A stretch of DNA of 62,436 nucleotides, filler included, from Sanchytrium tribonematis (Eukaryota): assembly GCA_018985235.1 (NCBI GenBank). It is 6 parts of 6 records of this genome, joined end to end, with 100 filler letters (N's around TTAATTAATTAA, not from the genome) between each part and the next. Parts side by side here need not be neighbours in the genome. Positions count along the whole stretch, not along the records: positions 56,213 to 62,436 come from JADGIG010000543.1; 5 more parts are not named here. One strand, given 5' to 3'. Both the position numbers and the translations under genes were made by a program. The notes below the pieces were generated by a model, which did not search any database, was not told where the DNA came from, and worked only from the letters and a program-made list of their open reading frames with translations. Numbering within the stretch: the stretch's first letter is position 1; every line of letters begins with the position of its first letter. This document shows positions 9,823 to 62,436 of this stretch, one piece after another.

Positions 9823-11029
9823 ATGAAGGGGCATTATATGAAATCGATATCTCCTAAATTAATGTCAATAGAATCACCTGACTCGTTTTGGGAGCGAGTA
9901 CTCAACTCCGAGCCCATATCTAATAAGAAACTAAAAGAATCAGCACGAAAAGGCATTCCTCAAGAATATAGAAGAAAAATATGGATAAAATTGGGAAGTA
10001 ATTTTTCAATTCCATTGAAACCAAACGAGAATATATTAAAATGCTTGGGAACAAAATTTCCTCATATCGAGTATGCACCATATCTTAAAAATCTGATTTA
10101 TGTTATGAGAACAATTTTAGACCCTGGTGAGACTGCGAGTCTCATCGGGTCCATGATTATGGATGACAAACTTTTAGTGAATTCCAATTATACTCAAATG
10201 ATTAATCTTGCTGAAAGCATGAACAAAAATGGCGGAAATTGTGAAAGAATGATGGACTCATTTTTTAACGATCTTTCAATAGAATTAAGATGTAGACTGA
10301 TAGACTGCTTAATAGTGGAGGGGTTTAAAATATCAGTTAAATTCTGCCTGTCGGCGTTGTCATTCCCTGAACTGCCTGATGACCTTATATTTATGAAAAA
10401 AGTATTCTCATTTTCTTTTTCTAGAAAGAAATTAGACTCTGCAAAAACGTCTCCATATTCCCCAGAAATTATCGGTCATGATTTTCCAAATGATGCCGAT
10501 CTTACAGAAGAAGACTGGTTGTTTATCTGGAAACACATTCCTCAAAGAGATATCCAGAGTCATTTAAATTTATGTTTTTCTTCAAATGAACACGGATATA
10601 ACATTTCATCTCTTTACAGATTGTTGGACGATAATTCTCCATTCATATTATTTATTACAACACTAGATCACGAAGTCTTTGGAGTTTTTGTTTCTAGCCC
10701 TGTAGATTTTGGCCAAGATTGTGGAAATGGTGATACACTTTTATTTCAAATACAACCAAGTCACCATTGCTATAAAGTTAACAAGGATAAAAGTGAAATT
10801 GACAAATGTTTTATTGCCAATAAGAAGGAAATAATTGTTGGTTCTTCAAAGTACATTTTATTAATTTAGACATGGTCAAGCCCTATGGATACACGAATCT
10901 TTGACATTTGGATATACTGCATCTTCCAATACATTTATGAGTCCGCCTTTGGTCTCCTCGAAGCAACACGCCAACCACGTTGGTCACAAATTTGAAATTG
11001 CGAATTTAAAAATTTATGTTCTAGAATAA
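9823..11029 (+). CDS. Degenerate TBC (RabGAP-like) + TLDc domain protein (TBC1D24-like); join(9823..10850,10870..11029), 395 aa
   Basis: LKESARKGIPQEYRRKIW (TBC start); FSSNEHGYNISSLY, EVFGVF, GNGDTLLF (TLDc); spliced exon supplies ALWIHESLTFGYTASSNTFMSPPL...FEIANLKIY. Confidence 0.85.
10851..10869 (+). other. 19-nt GT-AG intron (gtacattttattaatttag), phase 2
   Basis: Excision gives TCA AA|A CAT GGT and opens the missing TLDc C-terminus to TAA at 11027-11029. Confidence 0.92.
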
Positions 11030-21600: not shown

Positions 21601-23590
21601 AGCTAATATGTAGTATGGCTTATTTCTTTGAGTTTCAAGTGCGGTTGATTTGCTAAATAAGAATAGATTACCATATTAAATATTCATGCTGAACGGCTTC
21701 ATCCTCCACAATACTACACATTGTTGAAACACCCGTTCCTGTATCGCCTTCTATGGTTAAAGCAATGTGGGAATGACCTAGAACAGAGTGTTTCCGGATA
21801 GCATCTCTAATTATCTCAATTTCATTTTTTCTACCAACAAAGGAAAAATTTGAAGTCGATTCTACAAGTGTTTCTTTAATTCTAATGGGTCTATAAACAT
21901 TAATTGGGTAGCTTTTTCCCTTTACCTTCTGGGGCTCCATACCTTCAAACTCAATGTTGTCACACAACTCTTTTGTTCTGTCGTCACAAAGCATTGATCT
22001 GTGAGCACTCTTCAAAAACATCAGTCTTGCTGCCATATTTATGGAATCTCCCATTAAAGCATATTCTGTACGTAAAGAATTTCCTACTCCACCAATACTG
22101 ATGACTCCAGTTGTAATTCCCATCGAGTAATTCTCAAATATATCTGCAAATGCAGTATTAATTTCAAGAGCAGCACGAATTGCCTGGCTTGCATCGTTTT
22201 TGTGAGCTAAAGGTGGCAATCCGAAGAAAACTAAAATTATCGCACCTTTATCATCCACATGAAATTGCCTCAAAATTCCTTCGTGTTTGCTTATACTGAC
22301 TTGAACTACAGTCAATGCCTTTTGCAAAAGTGCAACAATAGAAGTAATAATATTTTGTTTGTCTTGCTCTAAAGGTTGTGCGTCTGCTAATGAGCTCTCT
22401 ATTGTATGCTCACATTCTTTCATTTTCAATGATATCCGTTCTTTTTCTTCGGTGTTGGAGCTTTCGTCATATCTAGCTTTCAAATTTAGTAGATTCGTTC
22501 TTGCATTTTTCTCATCTTCGCTTAATTTAGCAACTTGCTTTTCTATATCTTCTAAAGCATCTAGAGGAATAGAACTAATTTTTATGAATATTGTGGTGAC
22601 TTGACGCAATTCGTTAATGGACATCAAATGTTGTACACCTTGATGTAGTTGAATTGGACTAGAGTGTTGCAAATCAGATTCTAATTTGTACAAAGCACTC
22701 TGATTGACATATAGTTTGATTCTATCGTGAAAATCTTTGCTGTAAGTTGACTGATTAATCTCCCACATGTTGTAGAACTCATTCTCGTCTTCCATTACTT
22801 TCTTAGTTTTTGGAACTATTGTCATTCTAGAAAGACCATTCAAAATAACACAAGTCTTATCAAAGGACTCCATTTTCAAGCCATTGATTTCAACCACTTC
22901 TCCGAAATATCGAAAAGCTTTTTGACTTAAAGCCAATTGTCCAGCCTTCGCAAGATCGAGTACTTGGGAAATTTGCTCTATTGCATCACCGATGCAAACA
23001 TGTTCCCATCTCCCAGGGCTTCCACCCACGTGAACATCAAATATTTGGCCCGCTCCGATCCCCAGATGAATACGCAAAGCTCTTTGTTCCGTCCCTGATC
23101 CCTCCTCATTTGGAATTTCAACATTATAAGGATTAAGTAGATCCAAAAGCTCCAAACAGCAGAGACAAGCTTTGAGAACCAATTCGCCATATCTCTTAAG
23201 CTTGTCCTTTTTACTCTCATTTTCTTTATTAGGGGGCGATTTCCAATAAAATATCACAGCGTCCCCCACAAATTTTACAATATCACCTCCATGTATACAA
23301 ATCGTGTGTATAATTTTATCTAAATATTCTTTCATAACTCTGGCCAAAATTTCAACGCCCTCAGGCCCTCTTTCACCAAGAGTTGAAGCCAATGCAGAGT
23401 AACCACTAACATCACACATGACAATTACTGCAAATCCTTCCAATGCTTTAGGTTGAAGTTCTGACTTGTCTTGACAATGTTCAAGAACATGTTTAGAGAC
23501 AAAATTAGGAAGGAGTTGTTCAAAAGGAGTAATATCATCATATTCTATTGGAGTTAATTGAAGATCAAATCCGTACTCATTATTTTCCAT
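18634..23590 (-). CDS. Soluble adenylyl cyclase (ADCY10-like: two class III cyclase domains, STAND/AAA-like domain, TPR-like tail); join(23590..21672,21652..18634), 1645 aa
   Basis: CDVSGYSAL, GGDIVKFVGDA, RIHLGIGAG (C1); ELRQVTTIF, VDDKG, FGLPPLAH, EYALMGDSINMAARLM, KVKGK (C2); FVGRKNE, ECQWMD, SGGNPLF, FDRL. Confidence 0.9.
21653..21671 (-). other. 19-nt GT-AG intron (gtaatctattcttatttag), phase 2
   Basis: Excision gives ATA TG|C AAA TCA and an open frame (CKSTALETQRNKPYYILADIVRDL) into the 986-aa ORF. Confidence 0.93.
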
Positions 23591-30760: not shown

Positions 30761-30860
30761 NNNNNNNNNNNNNNNNNNNNNNNNNNNNNNNNNNNNNNNN
30801 NNNNTTAATTAATTAANNNNNNNNNNNNNNNNNNNNNNNNNNNNNNNNNNNNNNNNNNNN
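30761..30860. other. Artificial contig spacer (44 N + TTAATTAATTAA + 44 N)
   Basis: The same 100-nt six-frame-stop linker recurs at 37111-37210, 43451-43550, 49782-49881 and 56113-56212. Confidence 0.99.
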
Positions 30861-36301: not shown

Positions 36302-37010
36302 TTATTTGGTTTTACTTTGCTCTTCGGCTTGCATTGCTTCAGTTTGGGACCTGGTGATGTAGTTCAAATCCAATGTGGCCTCATAGCCATATCTGCTCAA
36401 CGCATCAGCTGCTCCATTTTGATGACCTATTACGTATGCAATTGTCAGATCGTGTTGCTGAAGTTTACACACCCAGCTTGCCAATTTCCCTGTTTTCTGG
36501 CTGTCGTTGGGGTTTTGGACACTTTTTCTTGTGAAGGAGAAACCCATCCGAGCTAAATGCAAACCCTAAGAAATTGACTTTTATCATACCAAATTTGCAT
36601 TTCTTTGCACAAAGCGTTAGCCCGAATTCTTTCAATTTCTTGAGCACCTTTCCCAGGCTCTTCATCAGAGACTCGAGTGTGTGACCAAATATTAGGAAGG
36701 CGTCCAAGTAAACCAGAATTTCAGTTCCAATCATTTCTTTAAATATTTCATCCATTAGACGCTGAAATGATGCTGGTGCTGTTGACAATCCAAAGGGTAT
36801 ACCTATAAACTCAAACAGCCCAAAAGGTGTCACAAAAGCTGTCTTTTCTCTGTCCTTATCAGCCAAAGGTCTCTGCCAGTATCCAGATTTTAGATCCAGT
36901 GATATGAAGAATTTTGCTCCATCAAGGCTATTTATGAGGCTTTGGAGGTTTGAGATTGGTGGTTTGTAGTTAAAGCAAAACCGTACAGATCCATCATGCT
37001 TTGATAGCAT
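36302..37010 (-). mobile_element. Degenerate Ty3/gypsy pol fragment (RT + end of RNase H)
   Basis: DGSVRFC, LDLKSGYWQ, KTAFVTPFGLFEF, PFGL, YLDA (dead YxDD), then frameshifted GKLASW...NGAADALSR; internal deletions. Confidence 0.88.
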
Positions 37011-37210
37011 AACACGGAGTATTACTGTAAAATATGTCCTCCAGTAAAAATGTTATAAAGAAACCCCCAGGCCCTCTGCAGCCCGCAAACCTAGCAGAAA
37101 TGGTTGACCCNNNNNNNNNNNNNNNNNNNNNNNNNNNNNNNNNNNNNNNNNNNNTTAATTAATTAANNNNNNNNNNNNNNNNNNNNNNNNNNNNNNNNNN
37201 NNNNNNNNNN

Positions 37211-39954
37211 CAATCTTATCCTGAATAATGGGCTCGGCATCAAAAAAGAGCTGCAAGACATCAGAAATTATGGTCATTAATCCAGGAGAGTCTTTTTCTC
37301 GCACTTCATAAACACTTTGTTATAGTAAACTACCTTTTTTTTAAATGTATTTTAGCAAATATATATTCTTGAGTCAAATATGCTATTATAAACATAGCAT
37401 CAGTTATAAATGCAAATAGTCCGAAAGACCCCCCGACAGTTCCGTAATAAACAGGTCTACCATTAAAGATTGGGTGTGACAAATTCTCCGGTCTCCTAAA
37501 TAACGTATTCATAGTATCGCCACCACAATGTCCTTGAAAAATTTTCAAGTATGCATTGTTTGACATTTCTAGCATGTAAACATTATTTCTGTCATCACAA
37601 ACAAGCTGGTGATTCTCATCTATCATTTGAGCTGTAGTCAACCATTTTGGTTTTCTATCCCTATACATTTGTTCTGCATTACCATTTTTTAAATCTAATC
37701 GATAAATAAAAATACTTCGGATCATGTCACCAATAAGAATGTAATTTTGAAAGGTATCCATAGCGACAATATGCGTGAAGAAATCAGATTCGAATATTAT
37801 TTTCTTGTTTAGTATTATCAAAAATTTTGTTTGTAACGCCACGACATAAAAAGAATCAATTTTGCGAATGATGATGGCTTCACTAGGTATTTCCATCTCT
37901 GAAATATCCAATTTTTTTTCAATTTCTTCAAATTTTATAAATTGCAAAATATGCTGATCGTTGTGTGTAGAGCCAATTGTGATAATACCATCGTATATTT
38001 TAAAGCAGCTGATAGTCGAATAAAAATTGTGCTCGTATATCACTTCGAAATTAGCCTTATCCATAAAAACTAGAATATAATTTGACTTGAAGTCGAGATT
38101 TTGCAAATCTCCATTTTTGCTAAATACCCCGACAATCATTTGCCCAAGTTCTTGACAGTACAAGCAATTTTTATAGACGTAATGTTTGTGAAGGTGTCGT
38201 TTTTTGATTTTCCCTAGATCCCCAAAAGCAATCTCTCTCCTAGTAGTGAAAAATAACATGTCATCTATTGCTGTACAATTGGTAATGTTTTTAGATAATT
38301 TAATTAAGGATTTATCATAAATATAAGAGGAATCGCTTAAAACAAACAAATGGTTCTTGACAAACGATACTTGAACAGGAGTGTTTCCCACTGGCAAACG
38401 CTCTAAAATATCATCTTTTAATATCCCCAAGGTACCATTTATAAACCCGACATACAATTCACCATTATCGAAATATAGTGAGTGAGCGTCTGGTATTGAT
38501 AATTTCATGATTTCTTGAAAATTTAAGTCTGTCTTATAAAGATCATCTGTACTAAAAATCAAGTTGTTTTCGTCGCTGGTGCAACAGCTAAATGGTACGT
38601 TAGTGGTATATACAAGATTAAAAGTGGTGTCAAGTTTAAAAACAACATAATCGTTACCAATACCACCAAAAACATACAAATACTTATTCCTTGTACAGCA
38701 TTGAACATTTATCTGCAATATTTTAGTTCTCTTAGCATGTAATACCTCATAAACACCTGTCGGAACAACTTGAATAACTCGTTCCCCAATCTTAGCACAA
38801 AAAATAGTAGGCTCATTAAATTCCAAATCATGTGAGATTTGATTTAATTCTTCGTTCTTCAATTGTAACACTTTGGTCGCGTTGTTATAGCTTAAAAGCA
38901 AAAGATCATCGAGACTGCTTATTCGAGTTGGAATGTATGTAGAGGACAGTTGGCCGTATAGATTAATTGGAATTCCTTTCTGAATAACTCCCATACAACT
39001 TGGCTGTACATTGCTTGTACATAAGATCAATTCTCCAACTATCAAATTATTCAACGGTGCTAATGATGGGATTTCATCAACAATCTCAAAATGACTAGCT
39101 GCAATACCTGGCAAGTCGACTTGTGCAGCCAAATCTTGTAATTTACATAGAAAAGAATCATGAAAATGACTTCCAACGAATATTAAGTCCTGAAATAAAG
39201 TTAATTTTGTGCATATAGTGAATTTTGTCAAATATTCAACTGTAAAATCATTTTCATACATTTTTAGCGTAAAGTACTCACCCTCGAATGTGCAAAATAT
39301 AGCCTTTTGTATTATGTCATTAGATCGTTTTTTAAGCGGTAAGAATAATAAATCTTGCACATAATGTTTAAATGGTTTTGAAACTTTAATATCGGGTCCA
39401 AGTAGACTAACATTGCCGTCGAACAATATCACGGATTTCGAATTCGGGACGGCATAGATCTTCAGATCCTCTTGGCCCTTTAAATCCATAAGTAATGACT
39501 TGTAGGGTTTTAAGTCTTTATCACATTTATAATATTCAATTCCATTTCTACTAAGGAGGCAGATGTCATTATTTCCACACCAAACGCCATCGATCATTTC
39601 GCTCACAATGTTTCTGCTAAATTTAATTTCGTATTCGTTCATGACAATAATTCGCGTTTTGCTAATAAATACAAGAGAGTCTTTGATCACCACGACTCTA
39701 TCGTAAATTTGATCAAGTTCGATAGTTTCAGTGTCTAATATGCTGCAATAATGTCTGTTAAGTAATCCAAAAACTTGATTTTTATATACTACAAGCTGAC
39801 GATACGCTAGGTAAATTGTTTTGATGACATTAAATTGAGTATCTCTTATTTGTAAATGCGTTGAAAATGCAATGTACAAATTCCCGTCAAATGATATGCT
39901 ATCTCTCACACTTGTGCCATATTCTAATGTTTTTTGAAGCAAAAACGGTTTCAT
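37211..39954 (-). CDS. DDB1: DDB1-like triple beta-propeller protein; join(39954..37334,37314..<37211), 3' truncated
   Basis: IFVGSHFHDS, EIPSLAPL, VIQVVPTGV, PVGNTPV, ILIGDMIRSI, RDRKPKWLT, YGTVGGSFG; spliced tail IISDVLQLFFD resembles IDGDLIESFLD. RSE1/CPSF1 paralogs not formally excluded. Confidence 0.72.
37315..37333 (-). other. 19-nt GT-AG intron (gtagtttactataacaaag), phase 2, AAG acceptor
   Basis: Excision gives AG|T GTT TAT and a frame open to the contig end encoding a DDB1-like C-terminal helix. Confidence 0.8.
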
Positions 39955-40118
39955 CCCCCTAATGTATAAATTATCATTAAAAATTCCTTCTTATACAACC
40001 GTCTGATTAATGGTTGCGAGAGTTTAAGAATCAGAATTTCAAATCTGGTTTTGCTTCAAATTTAAATTTTTTTACATAATGTTTTTGGAATTTCAAGCCA
40101 CATCCCGAAGTTTTTAAG

Positions 40119-43100
40119 ATGGAATCTGTTGCTGATAGATTATACGTGTTGAGTGAGTTTGGAGGCAAGAACTTACGCGTACTGTATTCTCACATCAAAT
40201 TATACAATTTCTTATCTAATCCAACGGAACAAGATACTTTATTTGGAGATTCTAGCATACCATTAAAGTCTGGACTGCAATTACTTATAGAACCAAATTA
40301 TCAACCGCTTTATAAAGCACTTTTAAAAAAGTTTCCAGATATCAGAGACATCCCTAAGAATACCACCTCTCTTTTAGAACAAAACCAAAAAATATTTGTA
40401 GACAGCTTACAAGGAATGTATAATAGCATGTCTTCGTTTTTGCAATTCCAAAATGATACACTAGAAGTTCTGAAAATTGCTGATAAAATCCAGTACTTAA
40501 ATTATGATGTTTCTCCGGACATATGTATGATGATTCTTGATGTGGTGAGACAAATTCACCACGGGCTTCACCTCATAAGTCTTTTGGGCGAACGGAAAAA
40601 GGTGATTGTGAGTGTATATGCAAAAGCTTATTTCCTCGAAAATGGAATTAATGAGCCACTGTTTAGAACCCTTGCCGACTTGTGCCTCAATAGTGATAAA
40701 ATTCAGCAATACATTGTGGAACTTTTTGCCCCATATAGTGGGGTAGTTCAAATGGCAATTGCTTCATTACAACAAGATTTCCCAAGTGGTGCCGTCATTG
40801 CTGCTGATACTCTTCGAAAAACAAAATCCCTCAGATTTAGTGGAAGTTTTAAAATGGGTAATACCAATGAACCATCTTACGATGACAAATTATTTAGGAT
40901 GTTGTATTATATTAATCGCAACGCTAGTAATGTGGTCGCTGCCACTTTATCATGCCCGAATGATATTTTGAAGGATGATAAGATAACACACGTCTCCACT
41001 TATTCAATCAATATGAATGACAAAATATATCTAGGAGGAGATACTTATCTTGAAGGCCTTAATGAGGTGGAACAAATAGGTCGCATTTCTAATAAGAGCA
41101 ATAAGATAGTCAAGCAATTGATTGAGGCTGTTCAAAATACTGCTACTCGCCAATCTCTTCATCTGGATCGAAGAGAATCAGTCTCGAAATTGATAGAAGA
41201 ATGTATATCAACTGTCGAAAGTCAAGGAGGATTTGTTGCTACCAAACTTCCAACGATATTATCGTTGCTCAGTCTAGGTTATTATGAATTAATACATTAT
41301 TTTCGAGTTGTAGAGAGATCGAGTCCAAGAAGAACCAAAACTGCAAACAACACTTCCACGAGTTGGTCTGGTGTATTTCTTTTAAAAAATGTCATAAAAT
41401 TGAGAGAAATTGTTTTGGAAAATAAGTCTCTTATTACAAAGTATTACATTAATTTATTGAAAATAACTTATGCAAATGGGTTAGATGAATACCTCAATAT
41501 ACTAGCAGGTAGTCCCGAACCAGATGGTATCAAAAACATGTGGAATGAAATTCACTTGATGCTCAAGTCTGCTTCTGAAACCCAGCTATCAAAATTTACG
41601 GATTTAAGGCAAACTTGGAGAAGATTGCAATTATATTTCGCTACTCAAAGTCCTCCGTCTCAGAACTCAACACCTTATTACATGTCCAAACTTATGAACG
41701 AAGTTTTTTTCAGATCCTTTTTTATTGACAACCTAGAAACTGAAATGGATAAAATTTGTCCGATCCAGGAACTCTACTTCTTCAGATACGCATTAATGGA
41801 TCATGTAACATCATTTACAAGTATTATTGGTCACGAGGACCAGTTTGTTCGTTTATCTGAATCTATAAGTTCTTGTATTGATATTGGCAGATATTTCCTC
41901 AAGGTTGTAAAGTATGAAAACAAGGTGAGTGGTCAAAATGAAAGAATTATTCAATTTGTCAAACAGTATGTTGAGGTGGGCACTCATCAACTGACAGACT
42001 ACACAGCGTTCTTAATCCATGGACTTAATCTAGAATTTGCACGACTATTTTTGTTAAGCCACAGTTTCGGTCAACAAACAATGTTGACGGAAGAAGACAA
42101 AAAGGCGATGGTCATGCCAGGATTTGAGTCTATGCTGCAGCATAAAAATGCTACACTTCTTAAATGGGCAGCACAACAATCTATGATAAAAGGGCTCTTA
42201 AATGGCTTTGTTGACATTAAAATTGGAAAAACAAGATTCTCACCGATTAATGAATTCATTAAGAGTTATAACAAGATTGTAAGTGGAGTTTTGAAGACAA
42301 GCATCATTGATTACGGGGCCAATTCAAAAGAAAATTCAAGCCCATATAGTGTATATTCTAAAGATTCTCCAATAATGCAACAAAGTGGATTTATGATTAA
42401 AAGACCCACTTTATTCTTGATTGGTTTGTATGGATATTTTGAGAATTTAAAAAGACTGTTTGTTTACGTAAAATACGACTATCTTTATCACGAAGTCACG
42501 AAGTTACTAAAAGACCAAAGCAATCTACAAGCAGCGACCGTAGAATTGTCCCAAGCACAGGCCGACACAAAGAAAAAAGTGGGTAAAAAAGCTCCTGTTG
42601 ACAATGACAAGTTGCTCGTAACCATTGTAATCAATTGGCTTATGGAAATTATTGGATCAAAGTCTGTTGCACAGAACTTTGGAATTTCTCCAATTAGAAA
42701 GTCCTTAGAAAGTTATGGTCAAGACCCATTTCCTTTGCATCATTTTATTTGCTACAAGGAATTCTATGCATTGGCTGAGTGCATTGGCCCGAATGCTAGA
42801 GTCTTATTAAGAGAAAAAATCTATTCTGTTGCTAAAATGATATTTGATGACATTTTCATTGCATGCAAACCTATTTATGAGAATGTAGATGCTGAAAAAT
42901 CGGATAAATCAGATCAAAAAATTATGGATTTCATTAGTAAGACTAGAAGCGCACAAGAGTTTAATGATTGGATGCTAAATTTTGGAACATTAGGGATGCT
43001 GTTTGAACTTGAGGATCTTTTAAGCGAAGCATTTAGTGACGCAATGCATGCCAATTCCTCATACTTAAGATCGGTGGTTGAACATGGCGATGCAACCTTA

Positions 43101-43450
43101 AATACGAAAATTCCTGATTTGGTAGAAATGATTACGAGCAGTGGTATCAAAAGCAAAAATGCCAAATCCAAATTCCAGATTTCTGCTCAAATTGATATTA
43201 AAAAATTCACAAACACTTTGGTGATCTTCATGGTTAGTCTCGCCCTGGACGAGACAATTATGTATTATCCATTTCACGGAAGTAATTTGATTTTATTTAG
43301 CTTTTACCAGAAATATTCAGTCAATACCATATGCCATTGCTATTATTTTGAGAGATTTGAGCATTTCGGTCGATCCTACAAAGTGGGAAAAAACCTTTGA
43401 AGTTGTGTGCCAGCAATTTCTAGAGCAATCTTGTCTTTACCTAATGAAAT
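40119..43450 (+). CDS. NCKAP1: NCKAP1/Nap1 (HEM family) SCAR/WAVE complex subunit; join(40119..43281,43301..>43450), 3' truncated
   Basis: VADRLYVLSEFG, LYKALLKKFP, MPGFES, IKRPT, EFYALAECIGP; spliced tail YYPFHGTFTRNIQSIPYAI...QFLEQS parallels NCKAP1 NNIHC...EFLAL. Confidence 0.82.
43282..43300 (+). other. 19-nt GT-AG intron (gtaatttgattttatttag), phase 1
   Basis: Excision gives GGA A|CT TTT and a frame open to the contig end with NCKAP1-like sequence. Confidence 0.88.
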
Positions 43451-43550
43451 NNNNNNNNNNNNNNNNNNNNNNNNNNNNNNNNNNNNNNNNNNNNTTAATT
43501 AATTAANNNNNNNNNNNNNNNNNNNNNNNNNNNNNNNNNNNNNNNNNNNN

Positions 43551-49781: not shown

Positions 49782-50858
49782 NNNNNNNNNNNNNNNNNNN
49801 NNNNNNNNNNNNNNNNNNNNNNNNNTTAATTAATTAANNNNNNNNNNNNNNNNNNNNNNNNNNNNNNNNNNNNNNNNNNNNAATGCAATATTTCGCCCAT
49901 TTATCTTAAAAATATAACAATTGTCAAAAAATTTAATTTTTTTCACACTTGTTACAGAATTATGAATGAACAAGTGCTGCTTATGGTGTTAATTTGAGTT
50001 TTGAAGATCCTATTGAGTATAATTATTGATATGTGGCAGATATTTATTGTTTTTAGACTCTTGTAACAGTAGATTGTGTGGCTCAAGTTCCAATAAATTG
50101 TTTAATTCTTGTTGATTCAGAACTCTTTTGTATCCACGATTCTCAATTTGTTAGTGAATGTGCATGTGTAGTTGGACTCTTCATCTAAAGATTCAGGGAT
50201 ATTATAATTTATTTCTGATGGTGGATCGAAAATTTGTGTAAATAAAGTTAAAGAAAGTGTATTTCGAGCCACTTAGTAGTGCTAATTGCTTGTCTTTTCA
50301 ATAGAACCATGTCATTTGGTTCAGACTTCAAAATCTTTGTGGGCATCGAATTATTTTCAAAGTCATTTTTACGTTTATGGTTTTGTATTTGACTGCCACC
50401 AAGCATCTGAATGATACGTATTTCCAATTTAATTTTTCTGAAGACGATATAATCTGAGTCGTTGAGATAAAATCGATTTGAATTTTCGAAAATTGAAATT
50501 TGGAAATTGATCTCTGATTATTTGAAAAAGATGCATTTTGTTATATGGACATGCAAACTCATAGTGTTGTAAGTCATTGTGGTTATTTAGAATGGATAAA
50601 TGGGCTGTGGTCCTGTTATGGAGCTCATGATATCTTGAGATGGACAGATTTAAAAATTGGCTGTTTATTGAATGAATCATAGAATAGGTATTGAGTTTAA
50701 AAGGAAATGATGCAGATCTTAGTAATAGTTGAGTATTAGGTAAAAGACATTGGCGGAATGTGTGGCAGAGTATTGGCAAATCTAGCGTATTTGGATATTT
50801 CAATGAAAAAGAGTTCGAATACATTTGAGTCACCATTTGGGTATCATGGTAAGCAGCA

Positions 50859-51260: not shown

Positions 51261-51406
51261 AATAACTATTTATTTACCAGTGTTCTTGGTCCCCGCGGAC
51301 CCTTTATATCCCATTTCTGAGGTCTGCTGACCTCCCATGTGCTCATTTGCACGTGATAACAACGTGCTGCTGTTGTGATGGACAATTTTCATGTCATTCC
51401 GCAACA
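50873..51406 (-). repeat. 3' LTR, 534 bp, TGTT...AACA
   Basis: Starts TGTTGCGG after purine run GGAGGGA; its last 16 nt (GAAGCAGATCTTAACA) equal 56111-56096, directly before the PBS. Left boundary inferred from PPT/TG only. Confidence 0.8.
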
Positions 51407-54400
51407 TCCCTCCAACATTCAATTTGTCTATCACTAGTCGCTTTACCATGCTAGGTGTTGTCCAAAATTCAATACTTTTATTATCAATCATTTGCAGTTT
51501 TATTTTGCCATTTTCCATTGCAACAATCGAATAAGGTCCACTGGCTGGACAATCAAGTTTACCACGTTTGATTCCATCAAAATATAGCACAGTGTCTCCA
51601 ATATTTACAATGTGGAGATGGCTGCCATTTGCATTGGCAGTTGCTTTAATTCTTCGTGCATATTTTAAAACTCGCAAAGTTTGAACTACCCGCACTCGGT
51701 CCTCAACAATACCATTAATGTACTCCAGCTCAACATCCGACACATATTTATCCTTTATGGAATCTGTATTGGTCACATTTATTAAATCCACAGGTGATAA
51801 TCGAGAAGAATCCATTGCTGAGTGATTTATGCAATATTCCACTGCATGTAATGTGTCCAGCCATGATGACATCCTCCAATCTCCAGTATAATTTGATGTG
51901 ACTCTAATCATATCCAATATTGTGCGATTTAGCCTCTCAACAGGATTTGACCTGTGGAGATATGGCGTTGTATAATGAATATTCACCAACTTGTGTGCTT
52001 TAGCTGCCATGTCATGAATAAATACTTCACAGGCTTTAAATACGCCGGCATTATCTGCAATGATAGTCATTGGGATAGGAAATGTGCTGAAACACTTCAC
52101 GAGCGCATTTTTCATATTTTCTGCACTTTCATCAATTAACTCTGCAATTCGGACATATGAACTAAAAGTATCTGCTACAACTAGCACTTTACCAATCAAA
52201 TCGCCATGTTCTGATTCTTCTGGAGTCAGATGCAAGACATCAATGGCAACAATTTCAAATGGGAATCTGGCAGGAGTTCTTGTCATTACAAATTTGTTCC
52301 TCTTTGGGTGCTTATAGGCAATGCACCATTCACAAGACATACAATACTCACGGATATCTAGTGCCATTTTTGGCCAATAAAAATTTGCCAATTCTGCCAT
52401 CATTTTCGAGGATCCTTGGTGTCCTGATATGGCATCTTTATGCGTTCTGTGCAGCAACATACTTCTAAAGAATTCTGGTACAAAAATACGATTTTCAAAC
52501 ATGATCACATCCATATTGATTAATTTCAAATTTGTGATTGCCTGATCGTCATTTGCAATGTTCAGGTCATTCTGAAGGAAATTCACACACTCGAAGTCTT
52601 TCAGCTGCCATCTGAGTAGTTCACCTGGCTGTATTTCATTTAGTACACTCTCTCCCACTCGAGTATCTGGTAAATTTTGGACACTTATTTCATTATCTAC
52701 TTGATTGAGTGATTTGTCCGCATTCTCTTTAAGATCTACATCCATTACATCTGCGTTATCATTCTGTTTTGCCATATTTCTGGTAATTACCATTACTCTT
52801 GGATTCTTAGATTTTGCTTGCTCAACAGCTTCTTTGATCAGTGGATTACGTGACAAGAAATCAGCATCGAAATTCAAACTACCTTTCACATACACTATGG
52901 ATAGATTGAATGATGATAGGAAAATGCTCCATCGGTACAACTTGCCATTTAACAAATTTCTACTTGTTAAGAGCCAGGCTAATGATCCATGATCTGTGAA
53001 GACTGTGACCTTGTGACCGTAGATATATCTTTGGAATTTCTTGAGTGCCGACACAATGGAGATACACTCCAACTCTGTTATGTGCCAATTGGCTTCATTT
53101 GCGTGTAATGATCTGGACCAATAATAAAGAGGCCTACCATCCTGTAATAGCACAGCACCCAAACCTCTCATACTAGAGGCATCACATCTAATCTGGAAAT
53201 CTTTTGTTGGATCAGGATAATGCAACATGGTGTTATTTGCCAGTAGCTTTAGAAATGATTTGTAGGCGATTATTTGCTCTTCCTCCCAACACCATGGCTC
53301 ATTTTTCCGCAACAGTTTTAAGAGTGGCTGTGCTATAATGCTGTAGTCGGGTACATAGCGAGCATTTCATTGCATCATCCCATTAAAACTCATTAGTTGC
53401 TTTTTATTAGTTGGTTCAGCAGCATTAATAATTGCGTCTATTTTGCGTGGATCGGCTTGAATTCCATTTTGACCAACAACATGGCCTAACAAATCTATTT
53501 TATTAAATCCTAAACTGCATTTTTCTGGTTTCAATTTCAAATTTGCTTTTCTGAGTCTTTCGAAGATTTCACGAGTATTTGCCAAGAACTCATCGAATGT
53601 AGCTGCTCCCATGGATATGTCATCTTGAAATGCCTGTGTTGATGTTATGCCAGCCAGCAAATCATTCATAATTCTTTGAAACCACGCAGGTGCATTTACA
53701 ATACCGAATGGGACACGAGTAAACTGGTAGATCTTTCCCCCGATATAGAATGCTGTATATTTTCGTGATTCGCGGTCCAGTAATATTTGCCAATACCCAA
53801 AGGCAAGGTCAATGTGCAGGAAGTAAACCATTCCAATAAATCTCAAAATCTGCTCCTCTGCATCTGCCTGTGGATAAACATCGAGAATCATAATTTCATT
53901 TAATGGTCGCAGATCAACACAGAATCTTTTTTCATCCGTGTCTTTTTTTGCAACTAATACGGTTTCATGAACAAAATCTGATCCATCAGGACCACACTCT
54001 TCAACAACTTCCAGCTTCAGCATCTTCTCCAAATTTTTATCTAAGATTTGTAATTCTTTGACACTTCGTGGTCGTCTTTTGACTTTGTAAGGTTTATATT
54101 CTTTCAATCGAATTTTAATTGGAGGTAACTTTGCTCCAATGTCTCCTTGAAATATGTCAACAAACTCACGAACCAGAGCCTTTAGAGCCAGCAGATGATT
54201 CTTAGGAAGCCTAGGATTGATTTTGAGTTTAGCACACACTTCTTCAAATGTCAATTTAGGGTGCTGTTCGTCAAAGTGAATAATATCTACCTCTCCTGGT
54301 AATGGTTCATCTTTCATTTGAGTGTATGTTTCTTTAATATATGCCGTCCCCTCTACAACTTGCTCGTCTATGTCCACATTGACATCCGATTCTGGCACAA

Positions 54401-56096
54401 TTTCATCATCACCCATGAGATTGGCAAGATTTCCGAAATCTTCCGGCTGCACGGGATCTGACGAGTCCATGGTAATAGTGGTGTCGTTGACTCGTTTACC
54501 ATGTTCAATAGATACAAAACACACATTCTTCTTCTGGATTGGAGATTGGGACAAACTGATCACTTTAGATCCCAATTCTACTACACCATTCTTTCCATTA
54601 ATAACAATGTTCAGTGGGATTAATCCATTGATCCCCAATAATAATGGACTCGTGCAATCACGAATGATCTCGAATGGCAAAATTGCCATAGAATCAACGC
54701 TCAACTCACAAAAGAGATTTACCCGTCCCAAAACCTTTTCAGTACTTCCATTCACACTGGTAATGCCTGTGAATGGTGATTTGAGCACTAAATGACCACG
54801 GGTATGTTTCAAGAGCCATGCTACAGTCACCAAATTGACTTGCGATCCCGGATCAATAAAAAGCTTTGTCTCTTGTTTTTCAACAAAAACACCAACTTCA
54901 ATACTTGATAATTGTTGATGAGAATGGCTAGAAACTACTTTTACTCCAATAACACAGTTACTTAGCCCAAATAGCTCTCCAACCGTCGCATTTGACTCGC
55001 GAGTGCTAGTTTGTCTACCACTACTTCCTTGTTTTTTTAAATTTGGGCAAGAGGCTACTCTATGACCACTGAGTTTGCAGTTAAAACAGAGATCGTTATC
55101 TCTGCAGAGTGAAATTTCTTCACGAGTCAATTTATTTGCAATGGCGTTAATCTGTCCAGGTGATGCTGTATTATGGTTATTACTGTTATAACCAACAGAC
55201 TTTGACTGATCATTAGAGGGATTTGGCTTTGAATATCTCTCATAATATGATCTTCCCAACATCATTTTCGTAGATTTTTCAACTGAAATCAATAGACTCT
55301 CCGCGCCTTCAATACTTTCTGGATAATTGACTGCTGTCTTATTTTGAATTGCCTGTCTTAGTTTTGGATTGCAACAATGCAAGATGCGATAAATCAAGTT
55401 GTTTTCTGACATCGCGAATTTGGCTTGCTGTAATGATGACTCAGAATCAGTTGCTAAAGGGTGATCCACAACAAATTGTAGCTTCTTTCTGATCAACTTC
55501 AATTTCTGGCAATATTCACGTGCGTCTAAAGCCCCTTGTTGCAATGTTGTTAAAGTTGCAGTCGTGTTGATCAATTTTTGTCTAGATCTGTATGAGACTA
55601 TCAAAGCGTGAACCAGCTTATCATAACTAGAATATCTCTCACTTGCATAGATTTGGGAAATCTTGTCTGGCAGCAAACTATTTACCAAATTTGACCAATC
55701 CCCAGGATGCACATTGTATCTTCTAGCCATTATCTGGAAATCGCTTAAGAACACGTCAATATCCTTATGAGGACTATCCTCACTTGGATCAAAGTAAACT
55801 TTTTGTTTTATTCTATCAAACACATCTTTAACATTGTTTTGCCGGACTAACAACTCAAATACACTGCTCGTACTCACATTCTGTTCTGATTTAATGGAAT
55901 CAATATCCATCATATCGTCGTATTTATTGATTTTACCAAAACCCATCTGTTCTCTAATTTTTAATTTTTCTAATTTTTCCAATTTTGATGCTTCCAGCAA
56001 TTTTCTTTCTAATTCATTGATTTGGTTCCTAATTCTATCAACTTTTCCAATGACTTTAGGCACTTGAACTTGGTGAGAGCCCTGATTCTCCACCAT
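51270..56096 (-). CDS. Gag-Pol polyprotein interrupted by TGA at 53367-53369
   Basis: CFNCKLSGHRVASC; LFIDPGS protease; IDLAFGYWQ, PFG, FQDD RT; CDAS, ELEC, TDH, DADFLSR RNase H; HHCC, AID/ADN/VERLN integrase, GPY motif. Confidence 0.9.
56078..56095 (-). other. Primer-binding site TGGTGGAGAATCAGGGCT (tRNA-Ala-like)
   Basis: Immediately follows the LTR-terminal CA; TGGTGGAGAAT is complementary to the eukaryotic tRNA-Ala 3' end ...AUUCUCCACCA. Confidence 0.8.
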
Positions 56097-56212
56097 GTTA
56101 AGATCTGCTTCGNNNNNNNNNNNNNNNNNNNNNNNNNNNNNNNNNNNNNNNNNNNNTTAATTAATTAANNNNNNNNNNNNNNNNNNNNNNNNNNNNNNNN
56201 NNNNNNNNNNNN

Positions 56213-58215
56213 GTTTCAGTGGTTTCAGTTGATTCTGTAGTTTTTGCCGTAGTTGTTTTTATATTTGATGATTCAGTTGATACACTAATAGGCTCTGTAA
56301 TTGATTGTGTGTCGTAAACAATAGAAGAATCACTAGTTTGTCTGCTAGTAATTGCACTTATTAATTCACTTGAAATTGAGGATTGTTTTGTAGTTTGACT
56401 TACACTCGTTACTGCATTTGTAGATGTACTAGTAGCATAAATAAACTGTGGCGTACTCTTACATAAAGAATATCCAATCAAATTAGTTGTATTCAACTCA
56501 TTAAATGATAAATCACAAGTCGTCAATCCACTTGAATTCAATATCTGCACAGAATCAAAGTAATTATGCTGTATTTCCACATAATAAGGTGCATTTAATG
56601 ATATAGTACCATTTAATTGATTATCATTGACTTTTAAATATGTTAATTGGGATATATTGCCAATTAATGATCCATTTAAATTTGCAGCATTTAATCGTAA
56701 ATATTTCATTGAAGATGGAACAGTGGGAATTGTACCACTTAATGCATTTAAATCTGCATGATATTCAATGAGTTGATCATTAAATGGAGGGATTTGACCC
56801 GTAAATAAATTGGTACCCAAATTACAAAATGACATGGAATCTGGTAAAGTGGGTAATTTACCACTTAATTTGTTTAATGGGACATCAAATACAGTCATTG
56901 GAGATTGTAATTGAACTGTGCCACTAATGAAATTATTAAATAGATCAATAAATACAAATGATTTGGGGAAAACAGGGAGTCCACCCGTCAATTTATTCCC
57001 ATTTGCCATTAAATACAACATATTGGAGGGTAATCTAGGAATAATCCCATTTAAATTATTATTACTTGCTTCAAAATACATGACAGAATTTGGTAAAGTT
57101 GGAAATTTACCAAATAAATGAGATCTGTGTTCTGTAATCACCATATGTCTTAATTTAGATGGCAATACCGTGGAATCAATAGTGCCATGTAATGATGGGA
57201 CATTTGATCGTGGCCAATAAATGGAAACCACATTAATATTTGAGCAAAGAATGCCTGGGAAATCACAACAATTCGTTGGAATTGTTAAATTTAGTGATTT
57301 ACCGAGTAAAAACATGTTATTACAATCATTTACAATTTCAGAGGGTGCTGTGACTGGACATTGGGATGGGAGATAGCCACTGACGGAATTTGTGATATTG
57401 CATGTGAAATTACTAGATCCCACATTTATCAGCATAATACCAGTATCTTGAATAAATAACTCATTTGGACTTTTAATAGATAATTGACCAGTGAATAAAT
57501 TATTATTCAGTCTCAAATTGATTACATTTGATAAATCAGGGATATTCCCACCTAAAGCATTATTTTGTAAATAAAGCGTGGTCAAATTACTTGGAACAGA
57601 AGCCAATACACCTAATAATAAATTATTATTCAATTTGAGTGACTTGAGGGTATTTGGGAGAGATGGAATACCACTTCCAATATTAAATTGATTACTCGAT
57701 AAATAATTATACGAGAGGTCTAATTCAATCAATTGGGATGGTAAATTAGGGATTAGATTGACAAATGAATTATTGGATGCATAGAAATACTTGATATTGC
57801 TTGGGAAGGGTGGTAAACTACTGATAAATTGATTATGAGAAATATCTATTGATGAGATATTGGGGAAGTTGAAGATTCTACCAGTCAATTGGTTGCAAGA
57901 AACATTGAATAGACTCAATTGGGATGGCCATGTTGGATTGATGGGCATGGATCCATTTAAATTCATAAATGAGAAATCAATGGAGATGACTTGTTGCTGC
58001 CCGCTGACTACAAAACAAGATATGCGCGTGGATGAACAACAATTATTGGATAATAAAGTGTACTCGTCTGGGTTAACTAGGTTCATATTCATTTGACGGG
58101 CTAGATTGATGACGGATGGACAGTCTTGGGATATCTGAGTAATTTCGGAGTATATTGGACTTATTAAGATCATCAGCAGTACCAAGGATAAGTAGTGATG
58201 AGTGATTTCAATCAT
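56213..58215 (-). CDS. Secreted/surface LRR protein with Ser/Thr stalk, 3' truncated
   Basis: Signal peptide; two DC...CC...C N-caps; LxxLxLxxNxLxGxIP repeats; S/T-rich tail. Confidence 0.88.
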
Positions 58216-58414
58216 AAAATCTGAAATGTTTCAAATAGCTAAGCATCTTTTATGATGATAGCTCTACGTCGCAGTACGTCAGAAGCAAGTCAGATACTCA
58301 AAATTGATTTTTGAGATCTTATGGAGATTCAAGTAGCTGAAGATGGATACTGGCTCATGAATTTGTCTCTCGAAATCACTTTTTTTTAAAAAATAGTATA
58401 ATCTTTAATTTATT

Positions 58415-61054
58415 TTAAGCATCCTTACTACTGCCTAAATCAAAGTTTAAATCTCTCTTTGTCTTCTTCTTTCGTTCAAATTTCATAAACGATGGTAATA
58501 TCACAATGATCATTGAATTAATCACCAATTTCACAATAGAAAGCAAACTCAAATTTACAAATTCATTCAATTTATAACTCGGTTTAAATGTTAAATTAGC
58601 ATATTTCGTTTGCAATCCTCTTGTTGAGTTTACAGATAAATAGGTGCTTCCTACATCAAGAGAAGTATTTGCTGTAGTTTTGAAAAACAACCTTCTGGTC
58701 AAAATGATTTCTAAATGAATAAAAAATACCTGGTATTTCAATTCCGTATTCAAATATTCAGTTGTTTCAGTGGTAAATGCCACTGACGAGACCTTATTTT
58801 CATTCGCGAATGGCTGAGTCGTGGCAGAAGATGGAGAATTTGTTAATACTAATGATGAGCTAGTAATTGTTGCTTCTGCTGTAGATGTACTTGAAATGAT
58901 CGTTGAGAATGGTGTAGAAGTACTTGCAATAGTCGCAATCTCAGAACTCATCACATTTAGTTTCAAAAAAGAATCTGAATTATTTACACAATTCCCCAAA
59001 TTAGTATAATTTAAAATGGGATTCTTGGTAATATCACAATATTGAAGCGTATTTGGTGCTGCAATATAGATATTAGAAATGGAATTGTTGTAAAGAAACA
59101 AATATTTCGTATAAGTCGATTGTAACATTGCAATTTCACCACTAATTTGATTAGAATTGACTTGATTTGGCATTCCTATAGCCAACAACCACATATTTAG
59201 TGGAAGTGTTGGTAATTCCGCAATAATTTTATTTGATTGCAAGTATAAATTGCTTAAACTAGCTGGAAATGGACCCGTTAGATTTGTAAATAAGTTGAAT
59301 GACAAATCTAAACCACTTACACCATTAGGAATTACTGGTATGGTACCACTTAATAAATTATTGCGAAAAACACCCGAATAAATTTGCTGAAAATCAGTGA
59401 TTGGTCCACTTAAAAGATTATTTTGTACTTCGAAATATAAAAAGGAAGAACTTGGAATGTTCACAGATCCACTAAATTGATTGTCATTTGCAGAATACTG
59501 AAAAGCATTAGGGGCTTGTGGCAATGTACCATTAAAATTGTTGTTATTTAATAAAAATTTTGTTGCAATTGGGAAGTTTTGAGGGACTGGACCACTAAAT
59601 TGATTAAAAGAGACTACGATTCCCTTTAATTGAGAAAAATCTGGTAACGTACCATTAATCTTGTTCATGGAAATATCTAAATATTTTAAATATTGAGGCA
59701 CTTGGCCAATTAATTTCACAAAATTGCAGCTGCTTAGTGCGACAATGGTGATTCCTGATGGCAATAAATCCATATCTAAAATGACATCAGGTCCATTTGT
59801 GCTGTAACCATACCAATCAATTTGATCTATAATCCCCTGCTTACAAATAATATCAATCATCGAGCAACAATCTTGTAACAAAGATTCGTAATAATCTGGT
59901 TTAGTGACATCCAATTTCATTGATTTTGCGAATATTGCAAGTTGTTCGCAGCCATATCCAGTCTTTAGAGGTAAATTTAATTGGCAATTGACTGGAAAAT
60001 TGGAAGAATTGGAAATTGGATTATTTTGAATCACGCAAGGATTCTCAGTACCACCAGCTGAACAACTACCGTCAATTAAATTGGCACTTGTAATATCATT
60101 ATTAGTGATATTCAAGTTGCAATTATTCTTCAAAATGCTTATTTCTCCATAAAAATGATTATTAGAAATATCCAAATTTTGAACTGTTTCTGCAGATATC
60201 CAATGAGACAAGTTACCCGTCAAATTGTTGTTTTTGACTGATAAGTAGTTTAATTTGATGACATTTGGTTCAAAAATACCACTTAATTGATTAATTCCCA
60301 GTACTAAAGTTGCCAAATTAACAAGATTTGGAATATTTCCAGTCAACAAGTTATTATGCGTTGCAAAGTAGGTCAAAGAGGTAGAAAATCCTGTAAGATT
60401 TCCACTTAATAGATTATCATGTAGAATAATGGTGTCCGCATTTGGTGGAAGCACACCAATTTCCCCCGAGAATTGATTGTGATTCAATCTGACATGACTC
60501 AAACTTGCTGGAAGTTTGTTGATCAAAGTCCCATTCAACTGATTCATTTCAGCATAAATGCGACTAGTAGAATACAAGCGTGGTAAATTACCCACAAATT
60601 TGTTTCTTGAAACCCCCAACACGCTCCCATGAAAATCAAAATCCAAATACCCTTCTAAATCGTTATTGTCAATAAACAGTGTATCCATTGTAGATGGAAT
60701 TGTCGCATTGAAGGTGCCACTCAGTTTGTTATTGGACATGTCAACATTCAAAGATGGTAATTTAAAATTCAAATTTCCCGTCAAAGCATTGATATGTAAA
60801 TATAACTCGGGTAATTCTGATGGATACTTTAAATCCGTCACATCCCCATCCAATTCTAATCCACTCCAATCGATATGATCTACATATCCATTAAAACACG
60901 ACATTCTCGTCAATTGATAAGGTAAACAGCAATCCAATTGGATATATGCGTACATCTTTGGTTGCTTACGATCTAAACCTAGTTTTTGTGCCATTTTGAT
61001 GACTATGTCGCAGTCTGGAATAACTCCAAAAACAAACAAATAGAGTAAAATCAT
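58415..61054 (-). CDS. LRR receptor-like protein (signal, two capped LRR blocks, S/T stalk, TM, short basic tail)
   Basis: MILLYLFVFG signal; repeated C...DCC...C..G.(V/I)D.IDW.G caps; NxLSG repeats; TM LSLLSIVKLVINSMIIVILPSF then KFERKKK. Confidence 0.88.
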   Translation of the reverse strand: MILLYLFVFGVIPDCDIVIKMAQKLGLDRKQPKMYAYIQLDCCLPYQLTRMSCFNGYVDHIDWSGLELDGDVTDLKYPSELPELYLHINALTGNLNFKLPSLNVDMSNNKLSGTFNATIPSTMDTLFIDNNDLEGYLDFDFHGSVLGVSRNKFVGNLPRLYSTSRIYAEMNQLNGTLINKLPASLSHVRLNHNQFSGEIGVLPPNADTIILHDNLLSGNLTGFSTSLTYFATHNNLLTGNIPNLVNLATLVLGINQLSGIFEPNVIKLNYLSVKNNNLTGNLSHWISAETVQNLDISNNHFYGEISILKNNCNLNITNNDITSANLIDGSCSAGGTENPCVIQNNPISNSSNFPVNCQLNLPLKTGYGCEQLAIFAKSMKLDVTKPDYYESLLQDCCSMIDIICKQGIIDQIDWYGYSTNGPDVILDMDLLPSGITIVALSSCNFVKLIGQVPQYLKYLDISMNKINGTLPDFSQLKGIVVSFNQFSGPVPQNFPIATKFLLNNNNFNGTLPQAPNAFQYSANDNQFSGSVNIPSSSFLYFEVQNNLLSGPITDFQQIYSGVFRNNLLSGTIPVIPNGVSGLDLSFNLFTNLTGPFPASLSNLYLQSNKIIAELPTLPLNMWLLAIGMPNQVNSNQISGEIAMLQSTYTKYLFLYNNSISNIYIAAPNTLQYCDITKNPILNYTNLGNCVNNSDSFLKLNVMSSEIATIASTSTPFSTIISSTSTAEATITSSSLVLTNSPSSATTQPFANENKVSSVAFTTETTEYLNTELKYQVFFIHLEIILTRRLFFKTTANTSLDVGSTYLSVNSTRGLQTKYANLTFKPSYKLNEFVNLSLLSIVKLVINSMIIVILPSFMKFERKKKTKRDLNFDLGSSKDA
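58711..58729 (-). other. Candidate 19-nt intron (gtattttttattcatttag) inside an open reading frame
   Basis: CAG|GTA donor, exact length, T12, A14, TTTAG acceptor; splicing would give YQ-KSF-stop. Confidence 0.55.
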
Positions 61055-61229
61055 GTTTGAGATCAAGCCACGTTTTGAGATGCGACACAAGTGGCAAGCT
61101 AACTCAACTCTAATTTTATTAAAAAGGAGAGCATTTCTTACTCCACTTCATTTGTTGAACAAGTCCCTTAACACGAATCAATGGGTAAATTAAAAACCAG
61201 ACATGATTGAAAAATAGATTGTCCTTTAT

Positions 61230-62054
61230 TTATTCCCCCAATGTGCTATTAAAATCCAAAATGCCATAACTCACTTGATTATCTGGTGAAATACGATAAA
61301 GTACATCTCCCACCAATTGCACATAAATGGCACCTACGCCACTAATTTGTGACCAATCTTTGGTATGTCGTGAATAACAATAAGCTGTATTATTATAAAC
61401 ACCACACATATTGGATCCAGAAGTTGAAACTTGTGAAATTGGCAAATTGCCATATTGAATCCATTTAGACTCATCTGTAGAATCTAATACATTCTCAGCA
61501 CAATAAACTTGATTACTTAATACCCCACAGATTCGTAATTGGTCCATGGAAGCTTGTTGTAATCTACCACCTCGAGGAGAAAACCAATCTCTTCCTTGAA
61601 ATTGACGATCTTTGCATAAAATACCATCTTTTTGAGAGACAACACAGACTATCCAGTATTTATCTGGTTGAGTAGTGGCACTGGTGACGATATCTGAGAA
61701 GCCTGTTAAATCTTGATCATCTTGTTGCCAATTTGGATATTGGATGTCATCTGTGCATTTCATTGTGTTATTTGTAGTCAAAATACAACCACCATTATGA
61801 TTTAATGTGATTGCTTTGACTTGTGTGGTCATATTAAACCATTCTGAGAGTTTTGCGACTGTGCTATTGGCATTATTGCAGAATAGAGATTGATCCACGT
61901 CACTTTTGAGGACACAAGTGCGTGAATCTGAGAATGCCATTTTGGATGCCATACTATAACCTCCATAAGCTGCTTTCCATTGGATGTCTATTTGGGAAAT
62001 CGAGTTGTAAATTGGTGCTGTTTGAGGGATTGCGTTTAAGATCTGATAAAGCAT
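61230..62054 (-). CDS. Tectonin-like beta-propeller (lectin-like) protein
   Basis: ~40-aa repeats W...G.L.Q.S....(I/M)CGV....vYC, e.g. GGRLQQASMDQLRICGVLSNQVYC, WSQISG; start uncertain. Confidence 0.65.
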   Translation of the reverse strand: MLYQILNAIPQTAPIYNSISQIDIQWKAAYGGYSMASKMAFSDSRTCVLKSDVDQSLFCNNANSTVAKLSEWFNMTTQVKAITLNHNGGCILTTNNTMKCTDDIQYPNWQQDDQDLTGFSDIVTSATTQPDKYWIVCVVSQKDGILCKDRQFQGRDWFSPRGGRLQQASMDQLRICGVLSNQVYCAENVLDSTDESKWIQYGNLPISQVSTSGSNMCGVYNNTAYCYSRHTKDWSQISGVGAIYVQLVGDVLYRISPDNQVSYGILDFNSTLGE

Positions 62055-62436
62055 TTTTATTGATTTGAAATATAGTGGGTATTTATGCACAATCGAAAGA
62101 TATCAGATACTTTAATTGGTTGGAAAAATGGTTCACAGGTGCTTGCCAATTTATTCGCAGACTTGGTATTAAAAAATTCACGTGCACTGCTAATGAAGGA
62201 CTTGGGATTGAGATGGGTGTGAATTTGTGGATATGAGATGGAATAGTTAAATTATACTATGGCTAATTTAATCAGAATTGAGAATCCAATGGTATTTTGA
62301 AAAATGGCAGAAATTCTCCTGATTTCATCCCATTTTAATAACAGAATGTCAAAATATCAGGGACTCGTGGTGGCTATAGCAGTCGGTATTGCATCATCTA
62401 TTTACATATATGCACCAATTATACGAGAATTGGAAA

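Follow-up and report, generated by a model that had tools for sequence, protein, structure and literature searches.

A 19-nt element in the stalk of an LRR surface-protein gene of the sanchytrid fungus Sanchytrium tribonematis is best read as an ordinary, constitutively spliced intron lying beside a likely heterozygous −1 frameshift in the copy analysed here, a reading to which we assign a probability of about three in four. The gene was found in a stretch of 62,436 nt from the genome assembly GCA_018985235.1, referred to as the window, in which positions 56213–62436 come from record JADGIG010000543.1 (Table 1). A first-pass annotation of the same DNA had proposed a regulated micro-intron whose retention would switch the product between anchored and soluble forms. 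In the reading we prefer, the intron would be spliced by default, probably as a conserved phase-1 intron, and the ancestral gene would give rise to a membrane-anchored LRR protein. The window's allele would have lost one base 16 nt upstream of the donor, its spliced mRNA would yield a mostly unanchored ectodomain that is secreted or degraded, and the 3n+1 intron would fall in frame by chance after the −1 change. A minor anchored product from unspliced mRNA is plausible within this reading, as a leak and not as regulation.

Table 1. Positions of the LRR gene, its intron and associated features, and the reference introns, counted along the window.
Feature	Position	Strand	Remarks
LRR surface-protein gene (P0001)	58415..61054	-	879 aa when the element is read through
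1-nt length variant	58745..58746	.	one base longer in the second X1 contig than in the window; 16 nt upstream of donor
19-nt GT..AG intron in stalk (very likely)	58711..58729	-	window's version: phase 0; second X1 version: phase 1
Premature stop	58699..58701	-	reached on splicing the window's version: 778 aa, no TM helix
TM helix, predicted	58496..58552	-	hydropathy scan; residues 835-853, peak Kyte-Doolittle 2.43
AATAAA	58409..58414	-	from sequence; adjoins the TAA stop codon of the LRR ORF
Reference intron	313-331	-	
Reference intron	8334-8352	+	
Reference intron	10851-10869	+	
Reference intron	21653-21671	-	
Reference intron	37315-37333	-	
Reference intron	43282-43300	+	

The LRR gene and its two readings

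The gene encodes a hydrophobic N-terminus, two Cys-capped LRR blocks, an S/T stalk, a TM helix and a basic tail, with 26 residues after the helix and no kinase. The N-terminal feature is a short hydrophobic stretch, a possible cleavable signal peptide, that is common to the homologues. Comparison of the A1 profile with plant LRR-receptor ectodomains such as FLS2 gave a match at E 1.8e-32, and the Pfam family LRR_1 is present in three of the five members of A1; the LRR ectodomain is recognised at this profile level, and a Pfam search with P0001 itself returned no match. Like the ectodomains of plant LRR-RLPs and LRR-RKs (FLS2, PEPR1, MIK2), the protein combines plant-type repeats with an S/T stalk, one TM segment and a short tail lacking a kinase. 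Unlike them, it belongs to a fungal family that has distinct Cys caps and a putative receptor role, and the similarity lies at the level of the repeats only (23–35% identity). Its closest relatives are four S. tribonematis proteins in EukProt (P0002–P0005; 54–57% identity over the alignment), two of which, P0002 and P0004, are located on one contig, making this a multi-copy family with tandem members.

Translation agrees with both products that the first-pass annotation had described. Reading through the element keeps the frame open from the ATG at 61054, past the TM helix and basic tail, to the TAA at 58415 and the AATAAA beyond it, whereas splicing leads to a C-terminal YQKSF and a stop (58701–58699) ahead of the helix. 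The residues contributed by the retained element, VFFIHLE, occupy positions 776–782, some 50 residues before the TM helix.

A 19-nt element with the properties of an intron

The element reads CAG/gtattttttattcatttag (58729..58711, minus strand; the slash marks the donor boundary). Reference introns for comparison were drawn from the window, where translation with the standard code yields long ORFs that match Pfam families. A frame-bridging screen of all GT..AG stretches of 14–40 nt that link a stopped long frame to a continuing one (34 candidates) found four AT-rich 19-nt introns, located in the V-ATPase B gene, the talin gene, a TLDc gene and a cyclase gene; two further 19-mers, in a DDB1/CPSF-like gene and in Nckap1, lie near contig gaps and were accepted by inspecting 15 candidates. 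The intron of V-ATPase B is fixed by homology, as GMTR follows KSAIGE in 67 of 113 proteins and likewise in the spliced window gene. All six reference introns are 19 nt long, which with the element makes seven of seven cases in the window, and T12 and A14 occur in every one of the six.

A matrix trained on these six sites, two of them chosen by eye, gives the element 17.9 bits, the highest score among the 328 sites outside the training set (334 GT..AG 19-mers occur in the window), with the next at 13.3 bits. The element also outscores every leave-one-out value of the six reference introns (1.6–15.6). The possibility of a chance match, raised in the first-pass annotation, was tested against 2000 Markov-1 samples, in which 0.001 sites per gene length are expected at the element's score; the bare T12/A14 pattern does not discriminate, with 0.54 expected per gene-length sample. 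Matrix score, rank and Markov expectation thus argue that the element is of intron quality and not a product of chance, and its resemblance to the six introns in length, T12, A14 and acceptor, as first noted, stands. We conclude that 58711..58729 is very likely a true intron.

The hydrophobic patch VFFIHLE had been regarded as out of place. The patch is present, but a phase-0 control removes its significance: five of the six reference introns are stop-free in that phase and give V-led, mostly hydrophobic heptapeptides of the same kind.

A second version of the gene with reversed polarity

Contigs from X1, a DNA sequencing run and the one public run found to contain this stretch, which may be the source of the window itself, were compared with 56213–62436. 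Among the contig pieces listed, one carries an extra base at the length variant, at a depth of 49.5 of 97.2, and this same contig differs from the window at 58717, 58725, 58764, 58788 and 58805 (among the differences listed). Because the figures cover 8 of the 48 contig pieces and 40 of the 79 letter differences, the arm of the X1 bubble that matches the window is deduced from the remaining depth at the site, 47.7, which is without such a difference; phasing is taken from equal depth and from one contig per row.

Translation of this second version reveals that the polarity of the two readings is reversed. Here splicing (+1 − 19 = −18) produces a protein of 873 aa with the TM helix and retention runs into a stop at 799 aa, whereas in the window's version the 879-aa product comes from retention and the 778-aa product from splicing. 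Removal of the element therefore restores the conserved frame in the second version and does not do so in the window's own. The two changes that fall within the 19-mer of the second version spare GT, AG, T12 and A14, and take the matrix score up to 20.4 bits.

The first-pass annotation had allowed for a nearby indel or assembly error. The first part of that alternative holds, since the second X1 contig has one nucleotide more behind 58745; the second fits less well with a difference at half depth. Were the missing base an error of assembly or amplification, the real gene would exist in the spliced, anchored version only, and it can be said for this account that the window's contig is short (56213–62436) and that X1, if it is the source of that contig, is no independent witness. 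However, roughly half of the X1 depth at this site (47.7 of 97.2) lacks the extra base, and on a single contig the indel is linked to five substitutions in the manner of a haplotype, leaving an error very improbable. The indel looks like a real variant present at about half depth.

The two versions might also be near-identical paralogues from a recent duplication, of which the window would have a copy that is decaying or that encodes only a secreted form, as the multi-copy family with its tandem members (P0002/P0004 and the neighbouring LRR gene) could suggest. Against this, both arms appear to merge again in a summed-depth contig extending across the intergenic region and the neighbour gene: the X1 contig at 58090–58585, running from the 3' end of the gene into its neighbour, has a depth of 94.2, approximately the sum of both arms. 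Half-depth pairs are moreover seen along the whole 6.2 kb (for example 45.9 and 38.3 at 62018–62169), and the known close homologues are just 54–57% identical. We consider paralogy highly unlikely, and infer that X1 shows two alleles at about 1:1, from a sample that is heterozygous or mixed. Some X1 differences look homozygous (for example at 59557, 59922 and 60877), as would be seen whether X1 came from a different strain or from this sample after bubble popping, and they were set aside.

Close homologues point to an ancestral phase-1 intron

The four close homologues P0002–P0005 are known as peptides, from ORFs in EukProt that were called by TransDecoder on genomic contigs, and such intron-blind calls continue into introns. 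Each of the four terminates with R-x5-R, then a short off-frame tail and a stop. The R-x5-R motif fits a phase-1 19-nt intron (N/GT + 15 + AG/N) exactly, and the Leu in the fourth codon permits T12 and A14. Alignment of the tails of P0002 to P0005 with the window's phase-1 reading from the donor gives 12/24, 6/19, 12/24 and 6/24 identities, as against 3/24, 2/19, 3/24 and 1/24 with the window's ORF frame; the phase-1 score was reached by 0, 9, 0 and 44 of 2000 shuffles, respectively. When back-translated to the spliced frame, the tails agree with the peptide of the window's second exon, in the sense of being compatible, at 11/14, 8/11, 10/14 and 9/14 positions. These comparisons, in which introns and second exons are read from peptides, lead us to infer that the four homologues hold the intron in phase 1, so that the element sought in related LRR genes appears to be present in all four. 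Five versions of the intron, one from X1 and four from the homologues, are thus in phase 1 and the window's alone is in phase 0. The phase-1 state would be ancestral, because read-through of this element in the homologues is in phase 1 and ends at a stop; as the alignment of the stalks is too poor to locate the indel, the polarity of the homologues is taken from phase alone.

A profile search returned 149 further proteins, of which 17 contain the N-terminal Cys motif of the family. In 13 of these 17 motif-selected distant members a hydrophobic helix is found at the C-terminal end, with a basic tail, indicating that anchoring is the family norm. Twelve metagenome loci from an A1 scan (23–31% identity) were discarded, since the six inspected were mostly of plant-type LRR/kinase character, with one unrelated repeat-protein locus; just one of the twelve showed a match to a 19-nt intron, a weak one.

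These phases bear directly on the proposal that the cell toggles between anchored and secreted forms by regulated retention of the micro-intron. In principle either product could be made, the intron lying behind the ectodomain and ahead of the TM helix, and the intron position is kept in the four homologues. However, the retain-to-anchor polarity is private to the window's version, being seen neither in the second X1 version nor in any of the four homologues; the splice site is strong by its overall score (17.9 bits), although its position 13, discussed below, is atypical; any intron upstream of a TM exon yields a truncated form on paper; and 19 nt would offer little room for regulatory elements. 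A regulated switch is accordingly very improbable. Immunoglobulin mu and soluble receptors are familiar cases in which alternative RNA processing produces membrane and secreted isoforms, and these cases are conserved, under regulation, and demonstrated at both the RNA and the protein level. The LRR gene is like them in that an intron separates the ectodomain from the TM exon, and unlike them in that its polarity is confined to one version and known from DNA alone.

Splicing or retention in the window's allele

The arithmetic of the intron accounts for the open retained frame. Since 19 − 1 = 18, retention restores the frame after an upstream −1 indel provided that no stop is encountered, and with five of six reference introns stop-free in phase 0 such a frame needs no selection.

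Position 13 of the intron, next to the presumed branch A, is C in the window's version, A or T in the six references, and T in the second version and the four homologues. This C is read as a derived change, and it could weaken splicing. In the V-ATPase B intron of a relative (P0192/P0315), the read-through is G-x5-R, 19 nt long, with Ser as the fourth residue, and position 13 must accordingly be C or G. The notion that C13 cripples splicing is weakened by this intron, which is presumably spliced.

It could nonetheless be supposed that after the −1 deletion the intron came to be largely retained, and so partly exonised, giving a full-length anchored protein with an altered stalk together with some soluble ectodomain. 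The retained frame is indeed open to the TM helix, and C13 is private to the window's version among the six references, the second version and the four homologues. Tiny introns are also leaky elsewhere, judging from excerpts of the literature: splicing is incomplete in Mikrocytos (63% for 16-nt introns; PMC10245619), and a figure of about 25% is cited in PMC13644364 for microsporidia, with incompletely spliced introns. In rice, frame-restoring isoforms after indels are described as common in the sections available of PMC8893660. On the other side, the window's element still scores above every leave-one-out reference value, the relative's V-ATPase B intron has C or G at position 13 and presumably must be spliced, and the two changes in the 19 nt, set amid nine listed substitutions in about 260 nt (58546–58805), are not clearly in excess. 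The same rice sections treat true rescue as a rare exception, and the equally short introns of the Bigelowiella nucleomorph show a high level of splicing according to excerpts of PMC6009652. Rescue by retention is therefore unlikely, although we rate it above a regulated switch. The LRR gene and the rice splice forms are alike in that an indel and a non-3n splice choice cancel out; they differ in that here a natural variant, known from DNA, would have its frame restored simply by retaining a 19-nt intron.

A bolder form of this idea is that one allele is anchored by splicing and the other by retention, with the ectodomain of the latter secreted when spliced, and that leaky 19-nt introns thereby become a selected source of variation; this, too, we judge unlikely. 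If it were true, a heterozygote would need no regulator to produce both the anchored and the soluble form, and pairs of an indel and a micro-intron could serve generally, and under selection, to diversify the LRR repertoire of the parasite. In the reading we favour, that of an ordinary intron beside a frameshift, the locus joins an intron with a polymorphic frameshift, a combination common in expanded surface-protein families. The two versions constitute a natural, allele-resolved test of the leakiness of 19-nt introns and of frameshift rescue by retention.

A possible ultra-short intron class in sanchytrids

The window suggests a uniform class of 19-nt introns in sanchytrid fungi. The six reference introns may possibly represent an ultra-short class undescribed in Fungi, and would then probably be of more interest than the LRR gene. 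The first exon of V-ATPase B in the window and its Amoeboradix gromovi counterpart share a 90% cluster, and the intron position is common to A. gromovi (P0311) and metagenome relatives; P0192/P0315 imply a length of 19 nt, and P0316 has an in-frame read-through of 24 nt. Because ORF calling in EukProt is blind to introns, its sanchytrid proteins (P0002–P0005, P0311) are cut at them. Such calling misses the 19-nt class and leaves truncated V-ATPase B and LRR proteins, and published sanchytrid proteomes may consequently lack second exons and TM anchors.

Ultra-short introns are recorded in excerpts of PMC6009652, PMC10245619 and PMC13644364 from the Bigelowiella nucleomorph (18–21 nt), Mikrocytos (16–17 nt), heterotrich ciliates (15–16 nt) and myxobolids (median 22–27 nt). 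Sanchytrids are algal parasites with genomes of 10–11 Mb and about 35% GC, according to part of PMC8371127, and the GC content of the window is 34.9%. The introns described here resemble those of reduced genomes in their GT..AG ends, narrow length class, AT-richness, conserved A shortly before the acceptor and occurrence in a small parasitic genome; they differ in that the host is a sanchytrid-like fungus and in being 19 nt long in 7/7 cases in the window. The main text of PMC8371127 holds no passage on nuclear introns, the word occurring in a reference title only, as it does in PMC10459994; in the excerpted text of PMC13644364 sanchytrids are unmentioned, and the lineage is absent from the exceptions listed in its introduction. 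Among open-access papers on Sanchytrium or Amoeboradix, judged by title apart from the main texts of PMC8371127 and PMC10459994, none deals with nuclear intron size, and a literature search returned no report of the LRR gene or of such an allele-level flip. The class is provisionally regarded as undescribed.

Other features of the window

Near the LRR gene, positions 56213–58221 (minus strand) hold a distant tandem LRR paralogue (~24% identity) that is truncated in its S/T stalk where the contig ends, and which shows a +1/−1 pair at 56826/56831 in a half-depth X1 contig. Just upstream of the LRR gene start, at 61112–61150, 37 nt are missing from an X1 contig.

The window as a whole is a chain of contigs, and adjacency across its 100-nt linkers (30761–30860, 37111–37210, 43451–43550, 49782–49881 and 56113–56212), each made of 44 N, a 12-nt PacI-type spacer and 44 N, is not real. 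An LTR-retrotransposon-like pol occupies 51270–56111 (minus strand), with an RT ORF and an RNase H/integrase ORF in one frame and a single TGA between them at 53367–53369, and a further RT fragment lies at 36465–37052. The window also includes a full-length talin gene, from FERM to I/LWEQ (1939–9562, plus strand), and a gene for the SCAR/WAVE component Nckap1 (40080–43450, plus strand), both of which fit an amoeboid zoospore.
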